Shown: piece after piece, positions 9,551-49,994 of the stretch
Layout: every line of letters begins with the position of its first letter
Numbering within the stretch: position 1 is the stretch's first letter
DNA from: an uncultured Roseivirgaceae bacterium
Lineage (GTDB): Bacteria; Bacteroidota; Bacteroidia; Cytophagales; Cyclobacteriaceae
Reading direction: 5' to 3'
Length of the DNA stretch: 64,000 nt
NCBI GenBank assembly: GCA_964351595.1
Contig: CAYGOT010000001.1
Coordinates: forward strand, 85,847 to 149,846
Notes under the pieces: model-generated
Seen by the model: the letters and a program-made list of their open reading frames with translations, nothing else
Databases searched by the model: none
Told to the model about the DNA's origin: nothing
Program-made: the position numbers and the translations under genes

Positions 9551-9624
<74 letters not shown>

Positions 9625-9634
9625 CTTGATAATC

Positions 9635-9667
9635 AAGCACTTACATTAATTTGTAAGTGCTTTTTTT
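9635..9667 (+). terminator. Rho-independent terminator after the tRNA cluster
   Basis: aagcacttaca-ttaattt-tgtaagtgctt followed by a T-run (9661-9667). Confidence 0.7.
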
Positions 9668-15520: not shown

Positions 15521-15523
15521 TTG

Positions 15524-20168: not shown

Positions 20169-20177
20169 GGCATTCTG

Positions 20178-21650: not shown

Positions 21651-21694
21651 AATCTAAGAATTAATGACAAAATTGATTTATATCGATTCTATTT

Positions 21695-22822: not shown

Positions 22823-22844
22823 ATTAAGTCAATTCCTAAAGACA

Positions 22845-23783: not shown

Positions 23784-23799
23784 GTCAGTACTAGTTGAA

Positions 23800-26862: not shown

Positions 26863-26930
26863 GGCGCAAAATATGTACGTTGACCGCTTCAGATTGACAA
26901 AGGCATAGAAGTATCTAGAAAGACCCTAAC

Positions 26931-32391: not shown

Positions 32392-33251
32392 AAAGATTTA
32401 CGATAGCTGTTTGCTTGCTATTTGGTGCTGCGCAAGCTTTTGCACAAGATGACCTGCTAAGTCTGCTGGAAGAAGAGCAGGGAGAAGAGCGCACCCTGAT
32501 TGAAGCCACATTCAAAGGGACAAGGATAATCAATGGGCATTCTATTGAAACTCGAAATGCAGGGGTGATGGATTTCATCATCTCTCACCGATTTGGAACG
32601 ATTGATGGAGGTGCTTATGAACTATTTGGACTGGACAATGCGACCGTCCGCCTAGGTCTGGAGTACGCTATTTCTGATCGTCTATACCTGGGGATAGGTA
32701 GGAGCTCCTTCGAAAAGACCTATGACGGATTTGTTAAGTATAGACTGCTACGTCAAATGAGTGGTGGCGGCATGCCGTTTTCAGCAACCTTGTTCGGTTC
32801 GGCATCTCTAAAGAACCTAAGGCAACCTGAAATTGATCCGACTTTTGAGGAGAAAATGGCTTATACGACACAACTGTTGCTAGCGCGAAAATTCAGTCCG
32901 AGTCTGTCTCTGCAACTAATGCCGACTTGGGTACATAAGAACTTGATTCTCGAAGATGATATTAACAATGATGCTTTTGCCTTAGGCGTGGGAGGGCGGA
33001 TAAAGCTTTCTCAGCGCGTAGCGCTGGTGATGGAGTATTATTATCAATTCCAGAAGATAACGGAAGACTCATTCAACGCTATCGCAATAGGGTTTGACAT
33101 TGAGACCGGAGGTCATGTTTTTCAACTTCAGTTCACCAATTCTACCTCGATGGTTCCCAAGGGATTTATCACCGAGACGCGAAATGACTTTTTCGACGCG
33201 GGCATTCATTTTGGGTTCAACATTTCCCGGACATTCCAGCTCAAGGAATAG
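32388..33251 (+). CDS. DUF5777-like outer-membrane beta-barrel protein
   Basis: 287 aa with a signal peptide. It contains FKGTRIINGHSIET...MDFIISHRFG...LGLEYAISDRL...GHVFQLQFTNS. It overlaps the YceI gene by 4 nt. Confidence 0.55.
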   Translation: MKRFTIAVCLLFGAAQAFAQDDLLSLLEEEQGEERTLIEATFKGTRIINGHSIETRNAGVMDFIISHRFGTIDGGAYELFGLDNATVRLGLEYAISDRLYLGIGRSSFEKTYDGFVKYRLLRQMSGGGMPFSATLFGSASLKNLRQPEIDPTFEEKMAYTTQLLLARKFSPSLSLQLMPTWVHKNLILEDDINNDAFALGVGGRIKLSQRVALVMEYYYQFQKITEDSFNAIAIGFDIETGGHVFQLQFTNSTSMVPKGFITETRNDFFDAGIHFGFNISRTFQLKE

Positions 33252-35040: not shown

Positions 35041-36212
35041 GTTGGAATATTGAAAAGATCTCAAGAAGGCTTGCCAGTTCAGTAAGCTATGGTGCTTCGC
35101 AGCTGGCACCACGTTTTTTTACACTTGTGATCTCATGGATATTGATTCGCAGTTATTCCTCGGAACTTTGGGGCGAGTATGTCGAGGTTTTCCTGATTGT
35201 GAACCTTGCAGCAATGGTGCTCAGCTTCGGCAATTTTCAATATCTGCTCAAAGAGTTTAGCACGCACCCTGGAAATATCTACCAGGTATGGTCAAGATGC
35301 TTAACGACAAGGCTGCTACTTATAGTCCCAATGAGTCTGCTGGCGAAAGCATTTTACTTCAGTGATCTGCCAGTTTCATACCTGATAGTTTGGCTCATTG
35401 TCGTATTTGTCAATCAAAGTTTTCAAGTGCTGATCGTATTCAACAAGGATTTTAAGAAGGCACTTTATGTCGAACTCCTGTCAGGAACAGTTTTGGTGAT
35501 TGCGGTACTATCGCATAGCGGCCCTCTTTCGCTTGAACTATTTATTCAGGTCGTTATTTTGTCGTTGCTCGCTAAGATGCTCTTATACGTTGTGACTTTT
35601 TGGCATGCGGTTTTAAGTTTTCAAGTGAGGGTAGACTTGAAAGTTTTTAAGGAGGCACTACCGTTTGCTCTTTTGAGCTTTATGGGTACGGTGAGGGCTC
35701 AATCAGATATCTACATGGTCGCCCTGTTTTTGGATAGTTCCAGTGTTGGCCAATACCATGTGTTGATTACGGTAGTTACTCTCGTGGAGTCAGGTGCAGC
35801 ATACATCTTTAATCCATCGGCCAGGTTGCTTTACAGAACGCGAGATGCAACTTTGCAATCTTTGAAGAGATCTGCATGGGTCGTGGGTATCCCTTTCGCT
35901 TTTTTGAGCTGCCTGGGATCTTACATGGTTCTTATCACTTTCTATTCCCTCCATTTTCCGACTTGGTTTTACCTGGCTATTTTGGTTTTCTCATTCCCAC
36001 AACTGTTCAAGATGATTGTAGTAAATGAGTTTTATAAATTAAATGGACAGAAAGCTTTAGCCCTATTAGCCTTCATTTTTGTTTGTATTCAGGGAGTTCT
36101 TGGTTATTCTCTAATCCCTAGCAGCGGTATCCAGGCGGCTATTGCGCTGAGGGTCGGAGCTTTTTTGATTCATTTGTTGACGCTTCAGTTTTTTTTAAGA
36201 TACTATCGTTGA
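35037..36212 (+). CDS. Wzx-type oligosaccharide flippase (MOP superfamily polysaccharide biosynthesis protein)
   Basis: The track ORF 34986..36212 is trimmed to the ATG at 35037, which overlaps the upstream TGA (ATGA). The product starts MSWNIEKISRRLASSVSYGASQLAPRFFTLV and has ~10-12 TM helices, matching the Wzx N-terminal pattern. Confidence 0.6.
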   Translation: MSWNIEKISRRLASSVSYGASQLAPRFFTLVISWILIRSYSSELWGEYVEVFLIVNLAAMVLSFGNFQYLLKEFSTHPGNIYQVWSRCLTTRLLLIVPMSLLAKAFYFSDLPVSYLIVWLIVVFVNQSFQVLIVFNKDFKKALYVELLSGTVLVIAVLSHSGPLSLELFIQVVILSLLAKMLLYVVTFWHAVLSFQVRVDLKVFKEALPFALLSFMGTVRAQSDIYMVALFLDSSSVGQYHVLITVVTLVESGAAYIFNPSARLLYRTRDATLQSLKRSAWVVGIPFAFLSCLGSYMVLITFYSLHFPTWFYLAILVFSFPQLFKMIVVNEFYKLNGQKALALLAFIFVCIQGVLGYSLIPSSGIQAAIALRVGAFLIHLLTLQFFLRYYR

Positions 36213-36992
36213 ATGAGCTTACCGAGTACTAATAGTCCCTGCAATATCGTAGTAGTAGGATACCCTAAAAGTGGAACGACCTGGGTTTGCAGGCTGATTT
36301 CAGACGTACTCCAATGCCCATTTAATGGGAATTGGGGATTCGAAAACACAACAGATTATTACTTAGTAGAAGGTAAAGATCGGATGACGAACTTCGTTTG
36401 CTACAAATCCCATCACACCTACAAAAGGTTGTTTGATTGCTGGAGCATACAGCCCGATAAAATCATCTATCTCGTCCGTGACCCGCGCGACATTGTCGTT
36501 TCAGGCACCTACTTTTTTGATTCTTTTTTCAGGGTAAAAACGGGTTTGAGTAAACCGAAAAAGTATCTGCTGAAAACCAGCTTCGGAAAGAAATATTTGC
36601 AATACCGCATGACACAAGTGGTCTTGTATGGCAATGCCAAAATCGATAAATGGCTTGAGGATCCGTGGCTCGATCACTTTGATGATTACAGATCGCGCCC
36701 AGATGTGTTTGTAGTGAAGTATGAAGATTTTTTAGCTGACAGCTTATGTACTCTAAAGATCGTTCTCCAGTTTTTGGGGGCCGAGATAGATGATTCAAGA
36801 GTTCTTAGGTCAATTGACAGGCAGTCTTTCGAGAAGAGAAGGGAGTTAGCGAGGAAAACTGAGAACAAGGTCGACCTCAGGCTGCTGCGATCTGGAAAAA
36901 TGGGCGAGTGGCGCAAAGAGTTGAATCAGGACTTAGTTGCAAAAATCGAAAGGGAAATTGGTGAGGCTTTAAGAGCGAACAACTACTCCTGA
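36213..36992 (+). CDS. PAPS-dependent sulfotransferase (Sulfotransfer_1-type)
   Basis: 259 aa. The 5'-PSB loop is GYPKSGTTWVCRLI and the 3'-PB block is IIYLVRDPRDIVVSGTYF. RSGKMGEWRKEL follows later. It starts 1 nt after the flippase stop. Confidence 0.85.
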   Translation: MSLPSTNSPCNIVVVGYPKSGTTWVCRLISDVLQCPFNGNWGFENTTDYYLVEGKDRMTNFVCYKSHHTYKRLFDCWSIQPDKIIYLVRDPRDIVVSGTYFFDSFFRVKTGLSKPKKYLLKTSFGKKYLQYRMTQVVLYGNAKIDKWLEDPWLDHFDDYRSRPDVFVVKYEDFLADSLCTLKIVLQFLGAEIDDSRVLRSIDRQSFEKRRELARKTENKVDLRLLRSGKMGEWRKELNQDLVAKIEREIGEALRANNYS

Positions 36993-37726
36993 TATCGTTT
37001 TATTAGCACAATTCTATTTTTATGGAGCCAATGCTCAAGTGTCACTTTCAACACTCCAAGGCCATATAGTAAGCTTCTGCTGAAGTTGATGGATGAAGAA
37101 TGCTCCATGTATTTTGTGGGACATGTTATCTCAGCAATCACATGTCCTTTCATAATGATTTGGGAAAGTATTTGATTGTCAAATATGAAATCATCCGAGT
37201 TTGCCTCTATATTGATTTGCCTTATCACGTTGGCATCAAATGCCCTATACCCGGTGTGATATTCGGACATTTTTGCGTTTGTGACGAGGTTTTGGACGAA
37301 AGTCAAGAACCTGTTTGCCCAATACTTGTAGACGGGCATTCCTCCTTTTATTGCTCCATTACCCAGTATTCTGGAGCCGAGAACCACAGGAAAAATGTCC
37401 TGTGCGATTAGATAGGCCATACTGGGAATGAGGCTTGGTGCATATTGATAATCGGGGTGGAGCATTATGATTATATCGGCATTATGTTCCAGACTTTTCC
37501 GATAGCATGTCTTTTGATTTCCTCCATACCCGAGGTTTTTTTCATGAAGTATAATATGGGTTATACCCAATTCTTTTGCAACCGCTATCGTGTTATCCTG
37601 ACTTCCATCATCGACCAATATAACTTCATCTACTATGTCCATTGGTATTTCCAAGTAGGTTTGTCTCAAGGTTTTGCCGGCATTGTATGCAGGCAAAACA
37701 ACTATGATTTTCTTACCTAATAGCAT
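36983..37726 (-). CDS. Family 2 glycosyltransferase, polyprenol-phosphate sugar synthase-like (Dpm1/GtrB/ArnC-type)
   Basis: 247 aa. It has IIVVLPAYNAGKTL...EVILVDDGSQDNT and IIIMLHPDYQYAP (D-x-D-equivalent). Confidence 0.8.
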   Translation of the reverse strand: MLLGKKIIVVLPAYNAGKTLRQTYLEIPMDIVDEVILVDDGSQDNTIAVAKELGITHIILHEKNLGYGGNQKTCYRKSLEHNADIIIMLHPDYQYAPSLIPSMAYLIAQDIFPVVLGSRILGNGAIKGGMPVYKYWANRFLTFVQNLVTNAKMSEYHTGYRAFDANVIRQINIEANSDDFIFDNQILSQIIMKGHVIAEITCPTKYMEHSSSINFSRSLLYGLGVLKVTLEHWLHKNRIVLIKRYQE

Positions 37727-37808
37727 CTCAGGTTGTCAATTTGCTTAGTCCGTAATTTCAATTAAAATGAAGACAATCAGTAAAATTATTGGGCCTACCT
37801 TAGTGTAA

Positions 37809-38891
37809 ATGATCCATGCTGTAAAAAAGTTAAATCACAGAATTTACCCTAAGAAACTATTCTATGGAATAAAATGGGTAGTGCTGGGAGTGAATAATAT
37901 TTGCAACCTGCATTGCAAAATGTGTGACGTGGGATTGAAGGTAAATGATACCAATTTTGCTGTTAACCTTACCGGCACCAAACCAATCAACATGCCGCTT
38001 GAATTGGTCAAAAGAGTCATTGATCAAACTTATAAATATTATCCAAAGGCAAAGCTCGGATATGCCTTTACAGAGCCATTGATATACCCTCATCTAATCG
38101 AGTCACTTCAGTATGCCAATGAGAAGAACCTTTTTACCACTATCACAACCAATGCGCTCAACCTGGAGCACAAAGCTGCTGATTTGGTACAAGCAGGGTT
38201 GAACGAAATATACATATCGCTTGATGGACCGGAGGAAATTCACAATAGCATTAGAGGTCATAAAAGCTCTTATTCGAGGGCAATAAGTGGGATTGAGGCC
38301 CTACTGGAAACAAAGAATCCTCCAGGTACTTCCATTTTTTGTGTCATTACAGAATGGAATATTGGACACTTAAAACGATTTGTTGAGGATGTCAGGCATT
38401 TACCACTTAAGGAAGTTGGCTTCATGCATACCAACTTCACCACCAAGGCGATGGCCGAGACTCACAATCAGTTGCTTCTGGGCGAGTATCCAGCTACTGT
38501 TTCCAATATGGATGAAATAGATTTCACCAAGATGGATCTGGAAGTATTACATCAAGAGATTGAGGAAATTACCCACACTGACTACCCCTTCGAGACGACA
38601 TTTTCACCAGAAATTCATTCAAGAGCCCAGCTGGATAAATTCTATAATAGACCGGATATAAGTTTCGGCCGGAGGTGCAATGACGTATTCAACAACCTGA
38701 TGATCAAGTCAGACGGTTCAGTGATTCCGGCTCATGGAAGGTGCTACAACCTTGCCATTGGAAATGTATACGATGAAAGCTTAAAAGATATATGGAATTC
38801 CAAGGTTGTCGCCAACTTTAGGGTTACGCTTAACAAGCATGGTGGATTGCTTCCTGCTTGCCTAAGATGTTGTAGTGCATTTTCATCATGA
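37809..38891 (+). CDS. Radical SAM protein with a C-terminal SPASM/twitch-like Cys cluster
   Basis: 360 aa. The 4Fe-4S motif is CNLHCKMC, followed by FTEPLIYP and TTNA. The C-terminal Cys residues lie in RRCNDVF...DGSVIPAHGRCYN...PACLRCCSAF. Confidence 0.8.
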   Translation: MIHAVKKLNHRIYPKKLFYGIKWVVLGVNNICNLHCKMCDVGLKVNDTNFAVNLTGTKPINMPLELVKRVIDQTYKYYPKAKLGYAFTEPLIYPHLIESLQYANEKNLFTTITTNALNLEHKAADLVQAGLNEIYISLDGPEEIHNSIRGHKSSYSRAISGIEALLETKNPPGTSIFCVITEWNIGHLKRFVEDVRHLPLKEVGFMHTNFTTKAMAETHNQLLLGEYPATVSNMDEIDFTKMDLEVLHQEIEEITHTDYPFETTFSPEIHSRAQLDKFYNRPDISFGRRCNDVFNNLMIKSDGSVIPAHGRCYNLAIGNVYDESLKDIWNSKVVANFRVTLNKHGGLLPACLRCCSAFSS

Positions 38892-40408
38892 ACAAAGTCT
38901 TATTATTCAATCCTTTTGCCGCTAAGAATGGCTATCGCATTCCAAATTCGATACTACAAGTAGCTGCTTCTATCAAAGGCAAATACGAGTTCGTATTTGT
39001 TGACGGTAACCGAGAAACCGATCCGTGGAAGAAGATCAAGACTCACCTGGATACCGGTGAGTTCAAGTTTTTTGGATGTACTGTGATGCCCGGCCCCCAA
39101 CTAAAACAAGCCATTCCCTTCACAAAGAGGATAAAAGAGCAATATCCAAATATCATTAATGTATGGGGTGGTTATTTTGCGTCCAATCAATATGAATCGT
39201 CTCTGAAATCTGGGTTTGTTGATTTTATTATCAATGGACAAGGGGACTATGCTTTTCCACTTCTCCTCGAAATGATAGTCAGGGGACAAGGTGACTTTAA
39301 TGCCATCAGCAACCTCATTTTTCTTGAAGGTGATCAAGTCGTAAAGACAAAAAAAGAGTTTGTTGGGGATCAGGACGGACTCCCCGACTTACCCTACGAG
39401 GAGCTTCATAGAGATTACCCTTTAAAAGGTTATCTCAAAAAGACCTTCCTAGGAAGTAGGACCGCAGCTTATCACGCTAGTTTTGGATGCCCATTCACTT
39501 GTTCATTTTGCGCGGTAGTGCCCATCTACAATGCCCGATGGAAAAGCAAGTCAGCAGAGCGTATCTACCGGGATATTAAATATTTAATTGAGGAACATGG
39601 GGCAGATGCAGTGGAATTTCATGACAACAACTTTTTTGTCAATGAAAAAATGGTCGTGGAGTTTTCCAGATTGGTCAAAAAGCACAACATAAAATGGTGG
39701 GGAGAAGGTAGAATTGATACTATCAATAAGTACAAGGATGAGTCGCTTGAAATCATGCGTGATGCGGGCTGCAAGATGATTTTCTTTGGGGCAGAGAGCA
39801 GCAACGATGAGATTTTAGAACAGATGGACAAAGGTGGCACCCAAACAGTCCAACAGATCAAGGATTTTGCAGATAGGATGAGAAGATTTGATATCATCCC
39901 GGAGTACTCCTTTGTACTCGGTATACCGCAGGCAACAGAACGTCAAGTTAGCGAACAGATCACCAGAGATATCGCTTTTATTAAGGAGATTAAGGTCATC
40001 AATCCTGACACTGAAATTATCATTTACCTTTACAGTCCGGTTCCCACCGAAGGATCAGAATTGTACAGCACTGTCAAAAAAGCTGGTTTTTCGTTTCCGG
40101 AAAAACTTGAAGACTGGCTCAGTCCCGACTGGGAAAACTTCGACCTGAGGAGAAATCCGCTAACACCGTGGCTGAAGCCCTATATGGTGGATCAAATTCA
40201 AGGTTTTGAGACTGTCCTAAATGGGTATTTCCCAACATGTTCGGACTATAAGCTTAGTGGTTTTCAGAGGAGGGCTATGAAGGTGGCCTCTTTTATTCGG
40301 TATAGGTTTGACCTTTACAGATGGCCCTATGAGCTCAAGTTCCTTCAAAAATATTGGCTCAAATACAGAAGGCCGGAGACAGAAGGTTTTGTAATGGAAG
40401 AGACATGA
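38888..40408 (+). CDS. B12-binding-domain radical SAM protein (class B-type), copy A
   Basis: 506 aa. It has an N-terminal Rossmann-like B12-binding region (VLLFNP...FFGCTVMPGPQL...INVWGGYFAS) and the CxxxCxxC motif GCPFTCSFC. It overlaps the upstream gene by 4 nt. Confidence 0.8.
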   Translation: MNKVLLFNPFAAKNGYRIPNSILQVAASIKGKYEFVFVDGNRETDPWKKIKTHLDTGEFKFFGCTVMPGPQLKQAIPFTKRIKEQYPNIINVWGGYFASNQYESSLKSGFVDFIINGQGDYAFPLLLEMIVRGQGDFNAISNLIFLEGDQVVKTKKEFVGDQDGLPDLPYEELHRDYPLKGYLKKTFLGSRTAAYHASFGCPFTCSFCAVVPIYNARWKSKSAERIYRDIKYLIEEHGADAVEFHDNNFFVNEKMVVEFSRLVKKHNIKWWGEGRIDTINKYKDESLEIMRDAGCKMIFFGAESSNDEILEQMDKGGTQTVQQIKDFADRMRRFDIIPEYSFVLGIPQATERQVSEQITRDIAFIKEIKVINPDTEIIIYLYSPVPTEGSELYSTVKKAGFSFPEKLEDWLSPDWENFDLRRNPLTPWLKPYMVDQIQGFETVLNGYFPTCSDYKLSGFQRRAMKVASFIRYRFDLYRWPYELKFLQKYWLKYRRPETEGFVMEET

Positions 40409-41079
40409 TTTCATTACTCCAAAGAAGAGGCCTGAAGGTCTTTCATCCGATCTTGAGAAGAGCGGTCAAGATTTACTTGAAAAGTCCTAGAACCTATGTG
40501 CACAGGAAAATTAGGATAACAGTTATGCCAGGTGTTTTTCATCCGGGATTGTTTTTTAGCACCCGGGTTTTGATTGAGTTTTTGGAAGGTTTGGACCTGA
40601 GAAACAAAAGACTTCTTGAATTGGGTGCGGGATCAGGGCTCATCTCCATTTTTTGTGCTCAGGAAAAGGGGGCCACCGTTACCGCTTCGGACATTAATCC
40701 GGTGGCACTCAAATCACTGGAAGTGAACGCTAAAGTGAATAATGTTTCTATAAACATTTTGGAATCAGACCTCTTTGATCGCCTTAGAGTTGATGATTTC
40801 GATTTCATTATTATCAATCCCCCATACTATCCAAAGGAGCCGACTAACCTTGAAGAGCATGCCTGGTTTTGTGGCGAGGAGTTTGACTATTTCAAAAAGC
40901 TCTTTATTCATCTCAGGCTCTCAGACCTTAGCAGAATAATGGTATACATGATACTTTCGGAGGACTGTAAGATTGATACTATCGAATCCTTGGCTAAAGA
41001 AAAAGATTTACGGATGGATGTGGTCTATCAAAAGGTCATGTCAGGTGAAGTAAACTATGTTTTTAGAATAAGCTCTTGA
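40405..41079 (+). CDS. Class I SAM methyltransferase with an NPPY motif (small-domain N-methyltransferase type, PrmC/RsmC-like)
   Basis: The track ORF 40354..41079 is trimmed to the ATG at 40405, which overlaps the upstream TGA (ATGA). Motif I is LELGAGSGLISIF and motif IV is FIIINPPYYP. Confidence 0.7.
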   Translation: MISLLQRRGLKVFHPILRRAVKIYLKSPRTYVHRKIRITVMPGVFHPGLFFSTRVLIEFLEGLDLRNKRLLELGAGSGLISIFCAQEKGATVTASDINPVALKSLEVNAKVNNVSINILESDLFDRLRVDDFDFIIINPPYYPKEPTNLEEHAWFCGEEFDYFKKLFIHLRLSDLSRIMVYMILSEDCKIDTIESLAKEKDLRMDVVYQKVMSGEVNYVFRISS

Positions 41080-41086
41080 TGATCAT

Positions 41087-42271
41087 CTAAAAAACGAAAA
41101 AGTTAGGCTCATGCATAGATAATTCTCGGGCTGATTCCGGGACCTCTATTGTAGCATACGGCGCTAGATGGTCAATATCCTTTCTGTGATATACGTTTTT
41201 GATATTGTATTCAAGCTGCGTGTGAGTAGGGATACCCTCCAGGATATCAGCCGCTTCATCTACATCCATATTCCATTCTTGTGCTATTCGTTCTAAGGAC
41301 GGCTCCATAAAGTCAATGTATAGGTACTCAAGGAATCGATGATCCTGAAGGTTTGAAAAATTCACCTCACTTTTCAATGTATCTCTATAGTGGGCCAGAT
41401 ATTGATTTTGTACATTCAGTATTTCCATAAATTGTTGCTTGCTTAAGTAGTCCGCTCCGATAAGCACCGGGTTGTTGGTAAAAAATGGCTGAATGTTAGT
41501 TTCATGGCACCAAAGGCATTTGCTCGGCTTACCGGCTTGCGTAATTGAGGGATCAGCCGCAGCTTTTAAATATCCGGCTTTATCATATATACCAAACCGC
41601 AGTTGTCCATTAGACATAAAATCGAATACTTCGAATTCTTCGGCGAGAAAGGTGCCTTCCTCGAAAGAACCACTCCCTTCTGTTGCCAGATAAGCAATTT
41701 CTTCGACCTTATCCGCATCCGCAATCTCGATGAGTCTGTCGATGTTCGAAACCCCTGAGTTGATGACCCTCATCTTGCTATTTCCGAATTTATGCTTAGA
41801 TCGAAAATCCATCAATGTCTCTGGTGCTCCGGTGATCTTGTAATAATGGTAGGAGCTATTGAGTGTGAGCATAATGAAGCGACCCATTTCGATGTAGTTG
41901 TGCATTGCATAAGCCTGACTTTGCTTTAGCGCCGCAATCACCGTTCCCAGGGCTTGTATAGCTTCGTCATTAAATCCAGCTTTAGACAAGTCCACTTCAT
42001 ATACATTTGAACCTATCCCTGTCATCATAAGCCGATCGAGTGAGCCGCTAGGTAGTTCTGCGCCTAAGGATGACAAAGCCCAGGCAAATCCGGTTTTGAC
42101 TTCATCTTCAGATTGATTGAAACCTCCAATGAAAAATTTGAGATTGATGCTGGTCTCCGGAATCACGGGACTGACTAATTCGTTTGAGTGATTCGTACAG
42201 GCATTTACGAGAATCACTAGTATTCCGAATAAGCAATAACCCTTTATAAGTTTACTAGCCATAATAGTCAA
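41087..42271 (-). CDS. Lipoprotein of unknown function with a single CxxCH motif
   Basis: 394 aa. It has a lipobox LVNAC and the motif KPSKCLWCHETN. It is the last gene of the minus-strand radical-SAM operon and overlaps the upstream gene by 4 nt. Confidence 0.5.
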   Translation of the reverse strand: MTIMASKLIKGYCLFGILVILVNACTNHSNELVSPVIPETSINLKFFIGGFNQSEDEVKTGFAWALSSLGAELPSGSLDRLMMTGIGSNVYEVDLSKAGFNDEAIQALGTVIAALKQSQAYAMHNYIEMGRFIMLTLNSSYHYYKITGAPETLMDFRSKHKFGNSKMRVINSGVSNIDRLIEIADADKVEEIAYLATEGSGSFEEGTFLAEEFEVFDFMSNGQLRFGIYDKAGYLKAAADPSITQAGKPSKCLWCHETNIQPFFTNNPVLIGADYLSKQQFMEILNVQNQYLAHYRDTLKSEVNFSNLQDHRFLEYLYIDFMEPSLERIAQEWNMDVDEAADILEGIPTHTQLEYNIKNVYHRKDIDHLAPYATIEVPESARELSMHEPNFFVF

Positions 42272-43656
42272 TTAGCACTTGGGCTCGACTTATAGAGTCT
42301 CATGATGAACCTTGAGAGGAATATCTTAAGCAGTAATTTGACCCTCTGCCAATCATAGGTATCGTGTTTATACAGGCTGATTTCTGAAGAAATCAATCGT
42401 ATAGCATGTTTGTAAAATGCTTTTGGAAATGTTCGGCGAAAATCAATGTCCCTGTCGGTACTTGCGTTCCATTCCGGCTCCTCAGTGATCTTATCAGCAA
42501 TTTCATTATAAAGTGAAGTCCCTTTGATTGGGTAAGCGGTCGTAACCGTGTAATGATCAGGATTGGACTGTTTTAGATGATGGATTGTTTCCAAAATATC
42601 CTCTTCGGTTTCGCCGGGGTAGCCTACCATAATAAATGTTCCCGTTTCTAAGCCTGCTTTTTTGCCTTCGACAATCATACTTCTTACTTGATCCACGGAT
42701 ACCCGGCGATCCATTTTATCAATGACGGCCTGAGACCCACTTTCTGCTCCTATCCATACCCGAAAACATCCAGCTTTTTTGAGTTGGGCGATCACATGCG
42801 CATTGAGTCTATCTGCCCTTGTGATGCACTCAAATTTTATCTTGACTTTTCTAGCTTCTAATTCTTCAACAAAAGCATCCAGCCACTTATGACTAACGTT
42901 GAATACATCGTCAACAAACCAGTAGGTATCCGGATTGTATTTCTCTTGTAACCAGACGAGTTCATCTACCACCTTTTCAGGTCGTCTTCTGCGGTAGCTT
43001 TGACCATACACGGCAGTACTACACCACTTGCAGGTATATGGACAGCCACGTTGAGTGCTTATGTTGAGTGCGCTTTCACCATGGTGCGCTTTCCAGACAG
43101 ACATGTATTGAGTGATATTGATCGCCTCTCTATTCGGCATAGGTAGTTCATCAATGGACTTTATCTTTTGACGCATTCGGGTAGTGATTTCTACACCATT
43201 TTCGTCCCTGTAGGCAATGCCATCTACCGTTGAAAGGTCCTTTGATGGATCCCCAAGGCAATAGACCAACTCCAACATGGTTTGCTCCCCCTCCCCAATC
43301 ACTAAGATGTCAGCGCCATACTTCAGATAGTTAGTGACATTGTAGGTGACGTCCGGTCCTCCTAAGACAATTTTCACATTGGGAAGGAGTGTCCTGGAGG
43401 ATTCAATGAGTTGGAGAACGCTAAGCTTGGTCATCAAATTGGTATAGATCGCCAGTATGTCAGGCTGTTCCTCTCTTATACTGGCGATGAGCTGTTCGTA
43501 TGAAGAAAATGTGCTGTCAAACACATGGTTATCAACCTTATTTTCATTGAGGTAGGCTGAAATATATAGTAACCCCAGAGGGGGATAGGGCTTCATTATT
43601 TTCTTCTCCCTTGGGTCGCTATTCAGAAAATAGCCATGCGTGAGAAAAACCTTCAT
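42268..43656 (-). CDS. B12-binding-domain radical SAM protein, copy B
   Basis: 462 aa. It has PYPPLGLLYISAYL, VLGGPDVTY, GEGEQTMLEL and the CxxxCxxC motif GCPYTCKWC. It is a paralog of 44435..45886. Confidence 0.8.
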   Translation of the reverse strand: MKVFLTHGYFLNSDPREKKIMKPYPPLGLLYISAYLNENKVDNHVFDSTFSSYEQLIASIREEQPDILAIYTNLMTKLSVLQLIESSRTLLPNVKIVLGGPDVTYNVTNYLKYGADILVIGEGEQTMLELVYCLGDPSKDLSTVDGIAYRDENGVEITTRMRQKIKSIDELPMPNREAINITQYMSVWKAHHGESALNISTQRGCPYTCKWCSTAVYGQSYRRRRPEKVVDELVWLQEKYNPDTYWFVDDVFNVSHKWLDAFVEELEARKVKIKFECITRADRLNAHVIAQLKKAGCFRVWIGAESGSQAVIDKMDRRVSVDQVRSMIVEGKKAGLETGTFIMVGYPGETEEDILETIHHLKQSNPDHYTVTTAYPIKGTSLYNEIADKITEEPEWNASTDRDIDFRRTFPKAFYKHAIRLISSEISLYKHDTYDWQRVKLLLKIFLSRFIMRLYKSSPSAN

Positions 43657-44435
43657 TTCAGCTGATATTGGATAAAAAAATGATCAGAAAACCTGGCCTG
43701 CCAGGCAAATCTGGCAAAGTGCTTTTCAAGGTATCCCAATAATTTTAAAAAGATCGGATGCCTGCAAAAGAATGATTCCAGATAGGAAGGCGGCACGAAA
43801 AAACCTACTGGCTTCAGCATCATTTCTCGGTAGGACGATCCCAATGCCCTGCTGAATTGCTTAGGGGAGTAATACCATGTTTTTACAGGTTGCCCTGAGA
43901 CATTGGCTATGGCCACCCCTCTGCTCCTTCTCAATGCCTGTGCTATTTTCCCTTTAAATGATAGGTAGATGAATTCCCAGACACAAAACTTCGGCATTAC
44001 TACGGCAATGAAAGAACCATTAGGTTTCAAAATTTTAGCAACAGACTCGCCGAGTTTGGAGAGTGAATGATGGTCTATACAGTTGACTCCTCCGAAATTG
44101 GAGAAAACCAGGTCAAAGTCATCACCCAGGGCCTCTGTGTCAATGTTGGTAAGGTCTATTTGCAGAAAGTCTATGCTCATCTCAGAGGCCTTACCCCGAG
44201 CTATACCGAGCATATTTGACGAAACGTCCGAGGCTACCACTTTGTGACCCTTTTTGGCGAGCATCAGGGCATCTTCACCTGTGCCACAGTTGAGTTCTAA
44301 TATTTTCAGTTCTTTACGATTGTTCAAGGCTTGATCAATGTATTGCCAGGTTTTACCCCGCTGTAGTGTACCAATGTTGGAGAGGGTAAACTGCCGATCA
44401 TAAGTACTTGCGGCGATATCAAAATCAGCACCCAT
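43653..44435 (-). CDS. Class I SAM-dependent methyltransferase
   Basis: 260 aa. It has ILELNCGTGEDALMLAKKGHKVVASDVSSNML (motif I plus an acidic loop) and DLVFSNFGGVNC. Confidence 0.75.
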   Translation of the reverse strand: MGADFDIAASTYDRQFTLSNIGTLQRGKTWQYIDQALNNRKELKILELNCGTGEDALMLAKKGHKVVASDVSSNMLGIARGKASEMSIDFLQIDLTNIDTEALGDDFDLVFSNFGGVNCIDHHSLSKLGESVAKILKPNGSFIAVVMPKFCVWEFIYLSFKGKIAQALRRSRGVAIANVSGQPVKTWYYSPKQFSRALGSSYREMMLKPVGFFVPPSYLESFFCRHPIFLKLLGYLEKHFARFAWQARFSDHFFIQYQLK

Positions 44436-45886
44436 TATTTAGCTTGGGCTAATTTCTTGAGTTGAAAGTTGCTCAACAAAGTAAGTGGGATGTGAAGACC
44501 AAGAGAGAATATGTCCTTTATATTTTTTGCGGTAGCCGACTTAGGCTTAGTAATCAAGTTTTTCATTAGAAGAAGGCCCCTCTTGATCCGGTACCTGTGG
44601 TATAGATGGCGATGTAGCTTCTTGTAAAAAGCAGACGGAAAAGTATTTTGAAACATCAGGTCAAGGTCATCTGAATCCGTCCAGTTGGCCTTATTCTCAA
44701 GGTCTTTTTTCACAACATCGTAAAATTTGGTGCCTGGCAATGGATACGATACTGAAACACCTAGTTTGTCCGGCATCATTCTGAGTACCAAATCGATGGT
44801 TTTTTGGATGTCTGACATTGTTTCACCCAGATAGCCAAACTGAATGAAAAAGGCGACTTTGACGCCCTTGGCTTTCAGAAGCTCAGTAGACTTCTCGATC
44901 TGCTCAATAGTCGTTCCCTTCTCCATGTCGTCAAGTACTCTTTGGGAGCCTGATTCTGCTCCAATCCAGACCTCATCAAGTCCAGATTCGACTAGCGCGA
45001 TGATATTATCTTCCTTCAGGAGTAGATCAGCTCTCGACTGAATTTTATACCAAATCTTAAGATCCCTCTTTTTAAGTTCCTCTTTGAACTTTTGCACCCA
45101 GCCAGGCTTCAGCCCGAATATGTCGTCACACATCCAAAAGTGGTCTACCCCATGTTTTTCGGCGTGGAACTGAATTTCGTCTACTACTTTTTCTGGTGAC
45201 CTTGAATTGTACCTATTTCCATAAATCGGTTTTGCACACCAGTTGCACTTGTAGGGACATCCCCGCGTAGTAGCAATATTAAGGTGAAAAGCACCCTTCC
45301 ATAGTTTTCTATATGCCTCGACATCAACCAGGTCCCAAGCTGCCTGCGGAAGGGCATCCAGTTGGGTATTGACACCTCGAGGAGATGAGGTTTTTACCTC
45401 GCCTTCACGCATGAAGCAGACTCCAGGAATGTGCTGTCCATTACCGCCAGAGTCAAGATTTTCGATTAGCTCCTTCAGCGTTAGTTCCCCTTCGCCTTTG
45501 AGCACAAAGTCAGCACCATTTTGCAAATACTTTTGACTATGGTCAGTAGCATCAGAACTACAAGTAATAGTAGTTGCACCTATTTTTTTTGCTAGCCGCT
45601 GCATTTCAAAAGCTGACTCCCTCATTGTGGTAAGGCACATTTTAGTTAAATAATTGAAGCCATCATCAAAAATCACAAAATATGATGGCTCAAAATCCAC
45701 TAGTCGGCTCTCTAGCTCAGTAGCAGATTTTTTTAGGCCAACGTCAAACAGTTGGACTTCATATCCCTCATGGCGCATCAAAGAGGCCGCAGTGATAGTC
45801 ATCAGCGGAGGGTAAGGTTGTCTTATCTTCCATTGCTTTGGGTCTAGCCTATAAAAGTAAGAATGACTAAATAAGATCCTTCTCAT
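44435..45886 (-). CDS. B12-binding-domain radical SAM protein, copy C
   Basis: 483 aa. It has PYPPLMTITAASL, GEGELTLKEL and the CxxxCxxC motif GCPYKCNWC. Confidence 0.8.
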   Translation of the reverse strand: MRRILFSHSYFYRLDPKQWKIRQPYPPLMTITAASLMRHEGYEVQLFDVGLKKSATELESRLVDFEPSYFVIFDDGFNYLTKMCLTTMRESAFEMQRLAKKIGATTITCSSDATDHSQKYLQNGADFVLKGEGELTLKELIENLDSGGNGQHIPGVCFMREGEVKTSSPRGVNTQLDALPQAAWDLVDVEAYRKLWKGAFHLNIATTRGCPYKCNWCAKPIYGNRYNSRSPEKVVDEIQFHAEKHGVDHFWMCDDIFGLKPGWVQKFKEELKKRDLKIWYKIQSRADLLLKEDNIIALVESGLDEVWIGAESGSQRVLDDMEKGTTIEQIEKSTELLKAKGVKVAFFIQFGYLGETMSDIQKTIDLVLRMMPDKLGVSVSYPLPGTKFYDVVKKDLENKANWTDSDDLDLMFQNTFPSAFYKKLHRHLYHRYRIKRGLLLMKNLITKPKSATAKNIKDIFSLGLHIPLTLLSNFQLKKLAQAK

Positions 45887-46931
45887 TTGTTTCTAGCTGA
45901 TACTTGTAAAACAATTCCTGATGTTCTTTGTCGTGAACGTTTGCGTCTGGGTTGAAAGCGAAACTATTCTTTGGTGGGAAAAGGAAATCTATGATTTCCT
46001 CCGAAAAGTAATTGGGAAATTCTGTCTCATAGACCTCTACAAACCTTTGCCTGATAGCCTCCTGATAACCGCCGTTTGGATTTGAGATTCTTTTAGGGTT
46101 GCATTTTTTTGTTGGGTCAAAACCCCCAAAGGCCTCCAACAAGGCAGAGATTTCCATTCTCTTCAGTGCTCTTCCGACACAAAAAATCAGAAAGCATGAC
46201 CAGTTGATCGGTGCTAGAAGTGAAATCCAGGAAAATGACTTTAGTTCTACTTCGTTTATGGGTGCAACTGATTTTGGCTTATAGTATCCCTCGTACCAAT
46301 GATTGTGGGCTTTAAAGTGCCTAAAAACTCCATCATCGTACACTGTCTTCAGGTTATTGATTTCCGTAGCAGTGTAAAAATTCTTGTTGTAGACTTCAAG
46401 AAAAGTTTCATCGGTTACATAGTTAAAGCAGTAAAAGTGATGTCCTCTGAACAAGCTTTTTAAGTTTTTGATAACCCTTTCAAAAAGAAAAAGGATATAT
46501 ATGCAATTTGATCTACAAATCACGAAAAGATCCAGATCGACGAATCCTTCGTGTTTACCATTTTGAATGCCCGTAGGATTATTGGCAGCAACAGATCCGG
46601 ATATCCCGATATATCTGATAAATGGCATCCGCCCCAATAGTTTTAGGGTGCTATTTCCTTGATTGATAAGCGATTGTGATAATTGATCCTTTTGCTCTTG
46701 TTGGTCTATTATGGTGCTGTTTCTCTTGACACATACCATACCCTTATTTACTGAAACGAGATTTTCTTCTTTTAACTCTTGGATCGCTGCTTCGAATTCT
46801 TTCTGGTTATGAGCATCAATTCCTAACCATTTTTGGCATTCGCTTATCCGTAGAGGGGCATTGAACACGTTTCTGTAGGAAAGATGAATTATGATTTTCT
46901 GTTTGATAGAAAGATGAAAGAATTGATTCAT
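45867..46931 (-). CDS. Hypothetical protein; possible N-terminal wHTH plus nucleotidyltransferase-fold core
   Basis: 354 aa and the first gene of the minus-strand radical-SAM operon. GISGSVAANN...FVDLDLFVI weakly resembles the G-S...D-x-D pattern of the pol-beta NTase fold. Confidence 0.3.
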   Translation of the reverse strand: MNQFFHLSIKQKIIIHLSYRNVFNAPLRISECQKWLGIDAHNQKEFEAAIQELKEENLVSVNKGMVCVKRNSTIIDQQEQKDQLSQSLINQGNSTLKLLGRMPFIRYIGISGSVAANNPTGIQNGKHEGFVDLDLFVICRSNCIYILFLFERVIKNLKSLFRGHHFYCFNYVTDETFLEVYNKNFYTATEINNLKTVYDDGVFRHFKAHNHWYEGYYKPKSVAPINEVELKSFSWISLLAPINWSCFLIFCVGRALKRMEISALLEAFGGFDPTKKCNPKRISNPNGGYQEAIRQRFVEVYETEFPNYFSEEIIDFLFPPKNSFAFNPDANVHDKEHQELFYKYQLETNEKDLI

Positions 46932-47144
46932 AAGAATACATTGGAAATTACAGAAAATAAGAAAATGACCTAAGCCAATGTCGGATTAATGATGGTCTTT
47001 GTCGGATTTTTTTTACCTATCAAAGTATTCAACCCTTCTTTCATTTTACTCAAGTTTCCCATCGATCGTTTACATTGATGCGAAAGTTGAATAAATCATC
47101 CCACCTGCTGCGGCCCTCTGGTTAATATGAGATAGGCTATTTTT

Positions 47145-47831
47145 TTAGGCATTAATGAATTCTGTCAAAAGTTGAGATAGAAAGGCAGTGTCAGGACTAC
47201 TAACAAAGCTTTGCTTAGCTGCTTCCATTTTTTCGGTACTTATCTTCTCTGGTCTGCTTTCAAATACTGCCTGGTTATACGTTTTGCTAAACTCAGGATG
47301 CCCCTGAATACCCAGGAAGTTTGACCCTACCGTGAAAATGCCTACTGGGCAGGTAGATGAGCTTGCCCATACCTTTGAATTTGAGGGTAATTCGGCAACC
47401 TGATCCTGACAGAGCATCAGTACATTGAATGTACTGACGTTCTCTTCTATCCAGGGTAGCCTTTCAGATATGCCAAATGTATGAACTCCAATCAGATATC
47501 CATGTGATGATTTGTTCACTACGCCTCCCAGCGCGTGTGCCATCATCTGATGGCCGAAGCAGCTACCGACAAATTTTTTTCTAGAGTTGAATATGTCTCT
47601 GGTAAATTGAGACAGGTCATCAATCCATTCAATCTTTTCGTAGACGGAGTGTTTTGACCCGGTACAGATAAAAGCGTCATAATCGTTGATGTCAGGAAAC
47701 TGCCTATCACAAACAAACCAAGCGTCCATGGTTAGTGTGGGCAGGAGCTTTTGGAACATCATGGGGTAGTCCCCATGAGCGGCAACAAGATCCTCTCTCA
47801 CATGATCACAGACGAGTAGCGCTACTTTCAT
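47145..47831 (-). CDS. Class I glutamine amidotransferase-fold protein (PuuD/gamma-glutamyl-amide hydrolase-like)
   Basis: 228 aa. The nucleophile elbow is GSCFGHQMMAHALGG and the His/Glu block is GIQGHPEF. Confidence 0.75.
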   Translation of the reverse strand: MKVALLVCDHVREDLVAAHGDYPMMFQKLLPTLTMDAWFVCDRQFPDINDYDAFICTGSKHSVYEKIEWIDDLSQFTRDIFNSRKKFVGSCFGHQMMAHALGGVVNKSSHGYLIGVHTFGISERLPWIEENVSTFNVLMLCQDQVAELPSNSKVWASSSTCPVGIFTVGSNFLGIQGHPEFSKTYNQAVFESRPEKISTEKMEAAKQSFVSSPDTAFLSQLLTEFINA

Positions 47832-49219
47832 TATTGCGGTAGCTTGAGATGAAAGGACTTAGGTCTGGTCAGGTGCACATAGCCTAGGGGACTGAGCGTG
47901 CACCCCCTACCGGAATCTTTAACCCCCGTCCACGCCAACTCAGGGTCGAGATAGTCGCAGCGATTCATAAACCAGGTGCCCGTCTCGATCTGATCCCCAA
48001 TGGTGATAGCCTTTTCGACATCTGCCGTCCATATACTAGCGGTGAGGCCATAGCGGCTGTCGTTCATGAGCTGGATCGCCTCTTCGTCATCTTTGACTGA
48101 CATAATACCTATGACTGGTCCAAAAGTTTCCTCTTTCATCAGGTCCATGTCATGATCAACATCGACCAGCGCATGGGGAGCAAGGTAAGGGAGTTGTAGT
48201 TCAGGGAAGTCGCCGCTTCCCACGAGCAGTTTAGCTCCCTGCGCTATGGCAGACTGTACCTGCTGTTGTGCTCTTTCTGCATTGGCCACCCTAACCATCG
48301 GTCCAAGCATCGACGCTGGATCAAGTGGGTTGCCTATCTGATAGGTCTTAGTTAATGAGACAAACTCCTTCACAAACTGATCATAGACTGACTCATGAAC
48401 ATAAATCCTCTCTACACCACAGCAGGACTGTCCCGAGTTGAAGAACGCGCCATCCACCAGATTCTCTATGGCTTCTGATAGGTTGGCGTCCGCGCGGACA
48501 TAGGCCGGGTCTTTACCACCCAACTCCAGCCCGGCTGAGATGAACCTACCGGAAATGGCTTGCTGCACTGCCCGTCCACCTTCGACCGATCCGGTAAATG
48601 CCACATAGTCTACAAGGGGGGCTTTGATCATATTTGCCACCTGATCATGATCAATGTGGAGATATTGGAAAACACCTTTGGGTAACCCCGCTGCGTCAAA
48701 TACTTCAGCATATCGCTCTGCGCAAAGTGCAGTTTGTTCAGCCATTTTTAGAATAACGGAATTTCCTGCCATGATTGCAGGAATAATTGCATTGACGCTG
48801 GTGAGATAAGGGTAGTTCCAGGGTGCTAGGACCAATACAGTCCCTATCGGCTCGTGACGGATGAATCGTTGAAAGCCTTGTTTTTCAGAAGTGACCTGAT
48901 CAGCAAGAGCTGCCTCGGCAATTTCGATCATATACCTGGCTCGTTCAGCAAAGCCACTTTTGATCTCGTTAGGGGTATACCTGATGGGTCTGCCCATCAT
49001 CTGTGTGATCTCCTCCCCCCAGGTGTCGGCGTGATCTACGAAATAGTCAACTGCCTTGGTGCAAATAGCCGCTCTTTCTGATAGGGGTGTTTCCTTCCAT
49101 TTCTTTTGTGCGATATATGCTGCCTGGAGTGCCTGATCAATTTGCTGATCATCGTGGTAAGTCCTTTCGGCGTATATCTTACCTGAACCCGGGCTTATGA
49201 TACTAAATCCTTTTGCCAT
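47831..49219 (-). CDS. NAD(P)-dependent aldehyde dehydrogenase
   Basis: The track ORF 47831..49258 is trimmed to the ATG at 49219 (MAKGFSII...), 1 nt after the SDR stop. It has FTGSVEGGRAV, ELGGKDP (catalytic Glu) and NSGQSCCGVERIYV (catalytic Cys). Confidence 0.88.
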   Translation of the reverse strand: MAKGFSIISPGSGKIYAERTYHDDQQIDQALQAAYIAQKKWKETPLSERAAICTKAVDYFVDHADTWGEEITQMMGRPIRYTPNEIKSGFAERARYMIEIAEAALADQVTSEKQGFQRFIRHEPIGTVLVLAPWNYPYLTSVNAIIPAIMAGNSVILKMAEQTALCAERYAEVFDAAGLPKGVFQYLHIDHDQVANMIKAPLVDYVAFTGSVEGGRAVQQAISGRFISAGLELGGKDPAYVRADANLSEAIENLVDGAFFNSGQSCCGVERIYVHESVYDQFVKEFVSLTKTYQIGNPLDPASMLGPMVRVANAERAQQQVQSAIAQGAKLLVGSGDFPELQLPYLAPHALVDVDHDMDLMKEETFGPVIGIMSVKDDEEAIQLMNDSRYGLTASIWTADVEKAITIGDQIETGTWFMNRCDYLDPELAWTGVKDSGRGCTLSPLGYVHLTRPKSFHLKLPQ

Positions 49220-49220
49220 A

Positions 49221-49994
49221 TTACTCCGGAGTGACATAGGCAGCTGTGATACCACCATCTACGAGAAATTCTGTGCCAGTGACATATGAGGCGTCATCTG
49301 AGGCGAGGAAGAGTGCCGCTTTGGCCATCTCATCAGCTTCACCGAACCGTCCCATGGGGATGTGCACCAATCTTCGCTGCTTTTTAGCCTCGGTGTTCAG
49401 GAATTTCATAAGTAGCTCAGTGCGTAGTGGACCCGGACATAGCGCATTGACGCGGATGCCCTCACGGGCATGAATGACAGCCAATTCCCTGGTAAGTGAA
49501 AGCACCGCACCCTTACTGGCAGTATAGGCAATTTGTGGTGTGGCGGCTCCCAGCAGCGATACAAAGGAAGCTGTGTTGATGATGCTGCCCCCGCCGGCGT
49601 GCTTGAGTGCGGGGATACCATATTTACAGCCAAGGAAGACTCCTTTAGCGTTGATGTTCATCGTTAGATCCCAGGTGTCTTCAGAGGTGGCCTCAGCATT
49701 ATCGTCATTGGAGTCCATGATGCCAGCATTATTGAAGAGGATGTGCAATGCACCGTACTCTTTTTCAGCTACCGCAATCATATGTTCACAGTCCGCGGCT
49801 TTAGATACATCCGCCTTCACGAAAATAGCCGCTCCACCAGCAGATGTGATTTCATCTACGGTAGCCTGACCTTGACTTTCATTGATGTCGGCCACCACTA
49901 CTTTGGAACCTTCCTTAGCAAAGAGTAAGGCGGAGGATTTACCAATCCCGCTACTGCCACCGGTGATCAAACTGACTTTATTCTCTAGTCTCAT
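49221..49994 (-). CDS. Short-chain dehydrogenase/reductase (classical SDR)
   Basis: 257 aa. It has TGGSSGIGKS (TGxxxGxG), NNAG and YTASKGAV (YxxxK). Confidence 0.88.
   Translation of the reverse strand: MRLENKVSLITGGSSGIGKSSALLFAKEGSKVVVADINESQGQATVDEITSAGGAAIFVKADVSKAADCEHMIAVAEKEYGALHILFNNAGIMDSNDDNAEATSEDTWDLTMNINAKGVFLGCKYGIPALKHAGGGSIINTASFVSLLGAATPQIAYTASKGAVLSLTRELAVIHAREGIRVNALCPGPLRTELLMKFLNTEAKKQRRLVHIPMGRFGEADEMAKAALFLASDDASYVTGTEFLVDGGITAAYVTPE

Follow-up and report, generated by a model that had tools for sequence, protein, structure and literature searches.

We analysed a 64,000-nucleotide stretch of contig CAYGOT010000001.1 from an uncultured Roseivirgaceae bacterium (hereafter, the window). 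Within it lies a block of about 15 kb that brings together four radical S-adenosylmethionine (SAM) enzymes, two methyltransferases and the machinery for decorating a cell-surface sugar polymer. A preliminary description drawn from the sequence had delimited an eight-gene tailoring module at 37809–46931. All eight open reading frames (ORFs) are present at those coordinates in the ORF list and its translations, but the bounds proved too narrow, and we place the unit at approximately 33451–46931, perhaps starting from 31840.

The eight ORFs are arranged as two convergent operons, one on each strand, just as had been proposed. The plus-strand operon encodes a radical SAM enzyme with a twitch-like or partial SPASM domain (37809–38891), the class-B-like radical SAM enzyme B12a (38888–40408) and MThK (40405–41079), a HemK/PrmA-like (MTS/PrmA-type) class I methyltransferase with an NPPY motif that was recognized by Pfam and NCBIfam domain matches. 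The minus-strand operon begins with NT354 (45867–46931), a 354-residue nucleotidyltransferase (NTase)-like protein, and continues with the class-B-like radical SAM enzyme B12c (44435–45886), the class I SAM methyltransferase MT1 (43653–44435; Methyltransf_25 and Methyltransf_11), the B12-binding radical SAM enzyme B12b (42268–43656) and a 394-residue lipoprotein containing a CxxCH motif (41087–42271). Neither NT354 nor the lipoprotein has a direct match in Pfam or NCBIfam.

Both junctions of the plus-strand operon are ATGA overlaps that can be read directly from the sequence, and the genes of the minus-strand operon overlap by 20, 1, 4 and 4 nt, in keeping with the 1–20 nt originally claimed. 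Overlaps of this kind point to translational coupling. For MThK, the ATG at 40405 was taken as the start rather than the listed TTG at 40354 because of the ATGA overlap that couples this gene translationally to B12a; the NPPY motif is found at residue 155 of the listed, TTG-initiated ORF. G+C content is flat across the region. Rfam returned only two tRNAs in the whole window, and no cobalamin or SAM riboswitch was found near the operons. A sigma-70 promoter scan, which yielded fewer sites than shuffled sequence, and a terminator scan, whose terminator-like sites were mostly intragenic, were both set aside because the promoter type of Bacteroidota differs.

The domain assignments originally made for the radical SAM and methyltransferase genes agree with Pfam scores and motifs. 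Each of the four radical SAM enzymes matches PF04055 at 59–79 bits (cut-off 29.5) and carries one CxxxCxxC motif. The SPASM-type enzyme at 37809–38891 scores 69.8 bits against Radical_SAM and 42.1 bits against SPASM (PF13186, cut-off 21.5) and has the motif CNLHCKMC. It is termed twitch-like or partial SPASM because its C-terminal region contains five cysteines (290, 312, 351, 354 and 355) rather than the seven of the full motif. The corresponding radical SAM motifs of the other enzymes are CPFTCSFC in B12a, CPYTCKWC in B12b and CPYKCNWC in B12c. B12b (PF04055, 79 bits) passes the cut-off of the B12-binding domain PF02310 with 65 bits against 32.1, whereas B12a (30.2 bits) and B12c (22.1 bits) fall below it. 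The N-terminal half of all three can be aligned with class B models such as BchE, starting near residue 20. B12b and B12c, which had been called paralogous, are indeed 34% identical over 430 residues, and B12a is 22–25% identical to either of them.

All four radical SAM enzymes stay below the cut-offs of every named NCBIfam family. Among the class B models scored (BchE, HpnJ, HpnR, PhpK, TIGR04072, the glutamine C-methylase of methyl-coenzyme M reductase, BzaD, TsrM, KedN5 and TIGR03975), BchE was the best match at 117–187 bits against a cut-off of 481; HpnJ was second best for B12a and B12c, and the other models were also far below their cut-offs. The PhpK- and Sden_1168-type P-methylase models scored well under theirs. 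With all scores this far under the cut-offs, membership in the hopanoid, ladderane-lipid and BchE families was rejected. The annotations of protein-cluster members offered only the automatic labels ‘BchE’ and ‘YgiQ’ and were uninformative. Among solved structures, the nearest relative of B12c is the glutamine C-methyltransferase QCMT (9CCB, 71 bits), a distant match, with other distant matches to OxsB and AprD4, while the SPASM-type enzyme has a distant match to anSME.

The glycan-assembly genes lie upstream of the plus-strand operon. Their physical linkage to the tailoring genes, already noted in the preliminary description, is corroborated by Pfam matches (GT2, Sulfotransfer_1 and GT87) and, for the Wzx-like protein, by profile alignment with hhalign. 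A multi-spanning GT87-family GT-C glycosyltransferase (33451–35040, plus strand; PF09594, 88 bits against a cut-off of 25) has eight hydrophobic segments. It is followed by a 408-residue Wzx-like flippase of the MOP superfamily (35037–36212, plus strand) with nine hydrophobic segments, whose probable start codon, an ATG, overlaps the stop codon of GT87 in an ATGA. This flippase has no direct Pfam match, and it was a profile of 18 homologues that aligned with the Polysacc_synt-family flippases at an hhalign probability of 97.3% (E 1.7e-11). Next come a sulfotransferase of the 3′-phosphoadenosine-5′-phosphosulfate (PAPS) type (36213–36992, plus strand; Sulfotransfer_1, PF00685, 8e-25), with homologues at three other loci (L003, L078 and L160), and a Dpm1/PpgS/ArnC-like GT2 (36983–37726, minus strand; PF00535) that is predicted to be a polyprenyl-phosphate-sugar synthase. 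In NCBIfam the GT2 scores best against PpgS, AglJ and dolichyl-phosphate hexose transferase, below the cut-off in each case; its nearest solved structures are the Dol-P-Man synthase 5MLZ and ArnC, and its orthologues at other loci are 60–69% identical. GT2, Wzx-like flippase and GT87 thus form a trio in the window as in Gtr/Arn-type systems, and the trio recurs at four other loci (L080, L154, L157 and L160).

Farther upstream are two possible accessory genes on the plus strand that encode a YceI-like periplasmic protein (31840–32391; PF04264, 1e-14) and a DUF5777 membrane beta-barrel protein (32388–33251; PF19089, 1.7e-94). This pair adjoins the module in the window and at three unrelated metagenome loci (L099, L135 and L140). 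Members of the YceI family are known to bind polyisoprenoids, and the arrangement hints that the two proteins may serve the pathway as a periplasmic lipid carrier and its outer-membrane partner.

Conservation of the cluster across genomes

The module had been labelled an orphan, which is misleading, as the window holds one copy of a widespread conserved cluster. B12a is the most conserved marker of this cluster: over its full length it shares at least 66% identity with members of more than 120 protein clusters, a metagenome scan gave more than 555 matches, and the orthologues from both sources are 62–97% identical overall. Across 18 diverse members the mean column identity of B12a is 77%. A methyltransferase gene is located directly 3′ of B12a in 63 of 69 loci; MThK accounts for 56 of these and another class I type for seven.

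Co-occurrence was counted on tblastn maps of the 23 loci in which B12a is flanked on each side by 8 kb or more. MThK is present at 20 of these well-flanked loci, B12c and MT1 at 17 each, and NT354 at 14, as is a SPASM enzyme of either type (the orthologue or a second type). B12b is found at about 8–9, and at other loci a class I methyltransferase takes its position. The CxxCH lipoprotein occurs at eight. On the side of glycan assembly, GT87 and the Wzx-like protein are each present at eight, a second GT-C-like type (GT87b) at four, a third (mem515) at six, the Dpm1-like GT2 at five and a second GT2 type at six; GT-C, Wzx-like and Dpm1-like GT2 genes are found in roughly half of the 23 loci. 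On an Ignavibacteriaceae contig (L076), the NTase-like gene, B12c, MT1, B12b, a methyltransferase gene, B12a and MThK are consolidated into one operon, with GT87 and SPASM genes beside it on the opposite strand. The same gene families therefore recur in shuffled order and orientation, at a B12a identity of 62–74% and in at least two phyla, and this persistence of content while order and orientation vary argues for functional linkage. The cluster is conserved in many Bacteroidota and in at least one Ignavibacteriaceae genome, and the radical SAM genes are retained together with each other and with glycan genes at dozens of independent loci, as the preliminary description had led us to look for.

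A search anchored on NT354 instead gave 63 protein clusters, every one from relatives within Cytophagales (such as Ekhidna, Reichenbachiella, Marinoscillum and Cyclobacteriaceae), and a genome scan gave 73 loci, of which 36 had their ORFs clustered. Two cultured strains, Ekhidna sp. To15 (NZ_CP179868, around 2.89–2.91 Mb) and Marinoscillum pacificum MRN461 (NZ_JAMZMJ010000015), are candidate carriers of the cluster. NT354 and MT1 occur together at 30 of the 36, mostly adjacent to each other. B12c sits between them in about 20 Cytophagales loci, and the complete core NT354-B12c-MT1-B12b is found in about 11. The neighbors of NT354-MT1 are always glycan genes, namely those for GT4, GT2, NAD-dependent epimerase/dehydratase, DUF6625, Wzx, an ATP-binding cassette (ABC) exporter and sulfotransferases. 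NT354-B12c-MT1 is found without B12a at L009–L017 and L027, and B12a-MThK without NT354 at L078, L080, L081 and L137. Since each group also occurs alone, the two convergent operons of the window represent two separable tailoring sub-modules.

Several of these loci carry variations of their own. At L009, L011–L013, L015–L017 and L027, the NTase-like gene is followed by B12c, an extra class I methyltransferase gene and then MT1; near this variant we observed genes for a 382-residue uncharacterized protein, a PNP_UDP_1 phosphorylase-family protein, a Sulfotransfer_4 protein and Wzx, with no B12a within 10 kb. A near-identical relative of the window is L003 (OZ245881.1), a Cyclobacteriaceae metagenome-assembled genome, whose proteins are 92–100% identical over the whole block, a match that assigns the window to Cytophagales. 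L003 has an insert of about 1.9 kb at 8071–10001, with two ORFs of 272 and 306 residues, between its GATase and NTase-like genes, where the window has only a 213-nt spacer (46931–47145). The GATase and ALDH genes downstream (47145–49258) were left outside the unit because they are conserved only in this near-identical genome.

Other loci add genes for GT9, Wzy_C, Wzz, a carbamoyltransferase and an FkbM methyltransferase. The presence of GT9, Wzy_C and Wzz at some of them suggests lipopolysaccharide (LPS) or O-antigen as the acceptor. In addition, a different trio stands beside the module at L007, L010, L078 and L094, comprising a GT9 of the heptosyltransferase family, an extra radical SAM enzyme of about 465 residues (motif CPYPCTFC, 25% identical to B12b) and a GT87-like protein. 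The LPS core is a possible acceptor there.

NT354 and the CxxCH lipoprotein

The 354-residue protein had been guessed to have an NTase fold, and this guess found support. Direct comparisons were negative, in that NT354 matched no Pfam family, even in a member-by-member scan of its family, and its profile found no match among Protein Data Bank (PDB) sequences even at E 10. A profile search of 1.84 billion representatives, however, returned 4395 relatives (representatives at 50% identity), and 12 of 24 distant relatives match Polbeta or NTP_transf_2 (PF18765 or PF01909). It is through these intermediate members that NT354 is placed in the Pol-beta superfamily. The alignment shows the expected motif to be conserved: G109, S111, D132 and D134 do not vary, and the residue at position 174 is acidic throughout. 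An AlphaFold2 model (pLDDT 77) predicts a winged helix, a small alpha/beta core of the minimal Pol-beta type and a helical C-terminal domain, and the best Foldseek matches of this model are MNT nucleotidyltransferases, weakly so (E 0.017, TM 0.4–0.5 on the target). The superfamily reaches Opitutaceae and candidate-phyla-radiation bacteria, and one member of 598 residues (P0442) is fused to a sugar epimerase/dehydratase of the short-chain dehydrogenase/reductase (SDR) type. Taken together, sequence relationships support NT354 as a new branch of the Pol-beta nucleotidyltransferase superfamily, and it is probably an active nucleotidyltransferase in sugar metabolism.

For the lipoprotein, the CxxCH motif that had been called from the sequence was confirmed. 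CLWCH is found at residue 252, and in 27 diverse members the motif K-C-x-W-C-H-E (C252, C255 and H256) is invariant and the lipobox cysteine nearly so. The family comprises 745 protein clusters, none of which matches Pfam or any cytochrome family, and the motif suggests that the protein possibly binds heme c. The AlphaFold2 model has a pLDDT of 91 and matched no PDB fold in Foldseek (best E 0.18); to judge from the model, the family is new and so is its fold. Because the lipoprotein is also encoded outside the module, we treat it as an accessory rather than a core component.

Proposed pathway and competing explanations

None of the radical SAM enzymes, the methyltransferases or NT354 has a hydrophobic N-terminus, a signal peptide or a membrane anchor. 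These enzymes should thus act in the cytoplasm, before any flipping step, and the most economical model is that they tailor a nucleotide- or polyprenyl-phosphate-linked sugar. We judge there to be about an even chance that the cluster carries out radical and methyl tailoring of such a sugar in the cytoplasm and that, once the sugar has been flipped, the GT-C enzyme attaches it on the outside of the membrane.

In this pathway, the Dpm1/ArnC-like GT2 would couple a sugar to polyprenyl phosphate on the cytoplasmic side of the membrane, and either this lipid-linked sugar or its nucleotide-activated precursor would be tailored by two cytoplasmic sub-modules, A (NT354-B12c-MT1-B12b) and B (the twitch/SPASM radical SAM enzyme, B12a and MThK). 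The class B enzymes would perform radical chemistry at unactivated carbons, most likely C-methylation and possibly oxidation or rearrangement, and the twitch enzyme would oxidize a position or activate it in some other way. Conventional N- or O-methyl groups would come from MT1 and MThK, and NT354 may provide or draw on a nucleotidyl handle, or provide a leaving group. The Wzx-like protein would then flip the tailored lipid-linked sugar, and the GT87-type GT-C would attach it to a surface glycan (LPS, O-antigen or exopolysaccharide) outside the cytoplasmic membrane, with sulfation as an optional extra. From the gene context we infer a product that would be a C-methylated, branched or otherwise radical-modified sugar.

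Several observations weigh against this pathway. The window contains no sugar aminotransferase or dehydratase gene and no obvious gene for nucleotide-sugar synthesis, and GT2, GT-C and flippase genes are each missing within 10 kb at a substantial share of loci. Only B12b passes the PF02310 cut-off. The nearest solved homologue of B12c, QCMT, is a protein methylase, and the named families closest to MThK (HemK, PrmA and RsmC) methylate proteins or rRNA. B12b and B12c also score, far below cut-off, against families of the lipid type (TIGR04072, HpnJ and HpnR). Finally, the lipoprotein is also found far from the module (L082).

The scores just mentioned could instead reflect lipid tailoring, in which the B12 radical SAM enzymes methylate or rearrange the polyprenyl carrier or another isoprenoid or alkyl lipid, YceI and DUF5777 carry the glycolipid to the outer membrane, and the product is a methylated, glycosylated, sometimes sulfated glycolipid. 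TIGR04072 gives 137 bits for B12b and 117 bits for B12c, and all three B12 enzymes score 110–139 bits against HpnJ and 60–110 bits against HpnR. The GT2 is of a polyprenyl-phosphate-using kind, and the YceI/DUF5777 pair adjoins the module in the window and at three other loci. However, these scores remain far below the family cut-offs of 360–650 bits, and no prenyltransferase, cyclase, fatty-acid or polyketide synthase, or acyl-carrier gene was seen in any annotated locus. Furthermore, the YceI/DUF5777 pair is confined to those few loci, whereas NT354-MT1 is tied to sugar genes, including one SDR fusion. On balance, we consider lipid tailoring of this kind unlikely.

The kinship of B12c with QCMT (MgmA), the glutamine C-methylase of methyl-coenzyme M reductase, raises a further explanation, that an envelope protein or a peptide resembling a ribosomally synthesized and post-translationally modified peptide (RiPP) is modified and then glycosylated by the GT-C after export. 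It would fit with this that MThK resembles the HemK/PrmA protein methyltransferases, that SPASM enzymes are often peptide maturases (weak matches here include anSME, PqqE and sactipeptide maturases) and that NT354 has an N-terminal winged helix. Yet the winged helix, to go by the model and weak matches, places its helices before the hairpin as in the MarR/IclR topology and not as in the PqqD-like RiPP recognition element. A comparison of 25 loci brought up no conserved small ORF in the vicinity of the module, and genes for a leader peptidase, an ABC-peptidase exporter or a cyclodehydratase, or of the lanthipeptide type, are absent from the annotated loci. No other recurring protein-coding candidate for a substrate emerged, the lipoprotein being present at only 8 of the 23 well-flanked loci. 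Modification of a protein or peptide is therefore improbable in our estimation.

Chance adjacency of unrelated radical SAM and methyltransferase genes to a polysaccharide locus, with no functional unit, might account for downstream GATase and ALDH genes that only L003 shares, but it is hardly credible given the ATGA and 1–20-nt overlaps and the recurrence of the same families in varied order and orientation in at least two phyla at a B12a identity of 62–74%.

Three specific readings were rejected. A RiPP cluster was discarded since no ORF of 20–110 residues is shared around the module in the 25 loci, where only ribosomal proteins of close relatives matched. In line with the preliminary description, there are no polyketide or nonribosomal peptide synthetase genes and there is no conserved precursor peptide. 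For anti-phage defense, PADLOC produced only generic hits, to the radical SAM core (pVip, 44 bits) and to the class I methyltransferase fold (mad2), and no match for NT354 or the lipoprotein. A phosphonate pathway of the Fom3-like kind was set aside because the annotated loci hold no phosphoenolpyruvate mutase or other phosphonate gene.

Surroundings, related systems and significance

Elsewhere in the window, a second likely surface-glycan locus lies on the minus strand at 14786–28649. It contains an MBOAT O-acyltransferase (20178–21650), a weak NodZ-like match (21695–22822), a 1020-residue protein with a nucleotide-diphospho-sugar transferase domain (23800–26862), and, without Pfam matches, two adjacent 631-residue ORFs (15524–19311) and a 572-residue ORF (26931–28649). 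Just upstream of the cluster, on the plus strand at 29261–30910, is a 549-residue fusion of an alpha/beta hydrolase with a C-terminal AraC-type helix-turn-helix domain, which is not conserved beside the module elsewhere. Also on the plus strand are a 560-residue PhyH-type dioxygenase and cupin protein (10288–11970), followed by an unannotated 624-residue ORF, and a predicted type IX secretion cargo of 1744 residues (55827–61061) with Por_Secre_tail, a purple acid phosphatase N-terminal domain, fn3, Big_5 and a MopE-type metal-binding motif.

The components of the cluster and its export logic belong to known superfamilies and designs. In the Gtr, Arn and PpgS/Rv3779 systems, a polyprenyl-phosphate sugar is made and flipped, and a GT-C enzyme adds one sugar to an envelope glycan; ArnD tailors the sugar at the lipid-linked stage. 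The cluster shares with them a Dpm1-like GT2, a flippase and a GT-C acting outside the cytoplasmic membrane. Those systems are not known to contain a radical SAM enzyme, an NTase-like protein or a CxxCH lipoprotein, and the flippases of Gtr and Arn are the small GtrA or ArnE/F, whereas the one described here is a MOP protein of the 12-transmembrane class.

Tailoring of sugars by B12 radical SAM enzymes, twitch radical SAM enzymes and N-methyltransferases is known from GenK, GenD1, GenN, BtrN, AprD4 and HpnJ. Aminoglycoside tailoring (GenK, GenD1, GenN, BtrN and AprD4) similarly combines class B and twitch/SPASM radical SAM enzymes with class I methyltransferases to modify the carbons and amines of sugars, and AprD4- and BtrN-type families are among the weak matches of the enzymes studied here, none of which meets an NCBIfam cut-off. 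Aminoglycoside tailoring, however, belongs to actinomycetotal secondary metabolism and is accompanied by 2-deoxystreptamine and aminotransferase genes, in contrast to the envelope-glycan assembly context of this cluster in Bacteroidota and Ignavibacteriota.

The hopanoid side-chain pathway (HpnH, HpnG, HpnI, HpnJ, HpnK, HpnP and HpnR) is similar in that a GT2 glycosylates a lipid, the B12 radical SAM enzyme HpnJ rearranges the sugar, and HpnP and HpnR are B12 radical SAM C-methylases. It differs in that the enzymes of the cluster score only 110–139 bits against an HpnJ cut-off of 578, that squalene-hopene cyclase and HpnH were not seen in the annotated loci, and that GT-C and Wzx proteins are not known to take part in hopanoid synthesis. 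The fosfomycin genes Fom1 and Fom3 likewise couple a nucleotidyltransferase to a B12 radical SAM enzyme, although the Fom1 transferase has a different fold (a cytidylyltransferase). To our knowledge, Fom1/Fom3 is the sole precedent for attaching a nucleotidyl group so that a class B methylase can act.

Most known class B radical SAM enzymes serve in antibiotic, cofactor, bacteriochlorophyll or hopanoid synthesis or modify proteins. Neither polysaccharides nor glycans are mentioned in a 2026 review of B12-dependent radical SAM enzymes. We found no description of the cluster in a literature search, a weak negative as most subscription journals were outside its coverage. The combination of several class B and twitch radical SAM enzymes in an envelope-glycan pathway with two uncharacterized protein families thus appears to be undescribed. 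It is possible, although we would put it somewhat short of an even chance, that radical SAM enzymes of the cobalamin-dependent and twitch kinds here rebuild a sugar linked to a nucleotide or to polyprenyl phosphate before a GT-C places it on the cell surface, in what would be the first envelope-glycan pathway of this kind. The outcome would be an undescribed, heavily alkylated, sometimes sulfated surface sugar, common among environmental Bacteroidota and Ignavibacteriota. Such a pathway may include several C-methylations, perhaps with ring rearrangement or oxidation, and would employ two protein families that may have no described relatives, a winged-helix nucleotidyltransferase and a CxxCH lipoprotein of new fold.

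The mean column identity of 77% suggests that the pair of B12a and its methyltransferase has a single defined substrate, which makes the biochemistry feasible. The cluster would also provide a functional context for the NTase-like superfamily, with its 4395 representatives, and for the lipoprotein family, with its 745 protein clusters. If the proposed pathway is correct, an envelope-glycan route with three class B enzymes and a twitch enzyme would extend the reach of class B enzymes to a new type of substrate, and abundant bacteria of the sea, soil and fresh water could display novel sugar chemistry on their surfaces. Such surface chemistry could bear on recognition by phages and grazers, on the degradability of the polymer and on the need of these bacteria for cobalamin.

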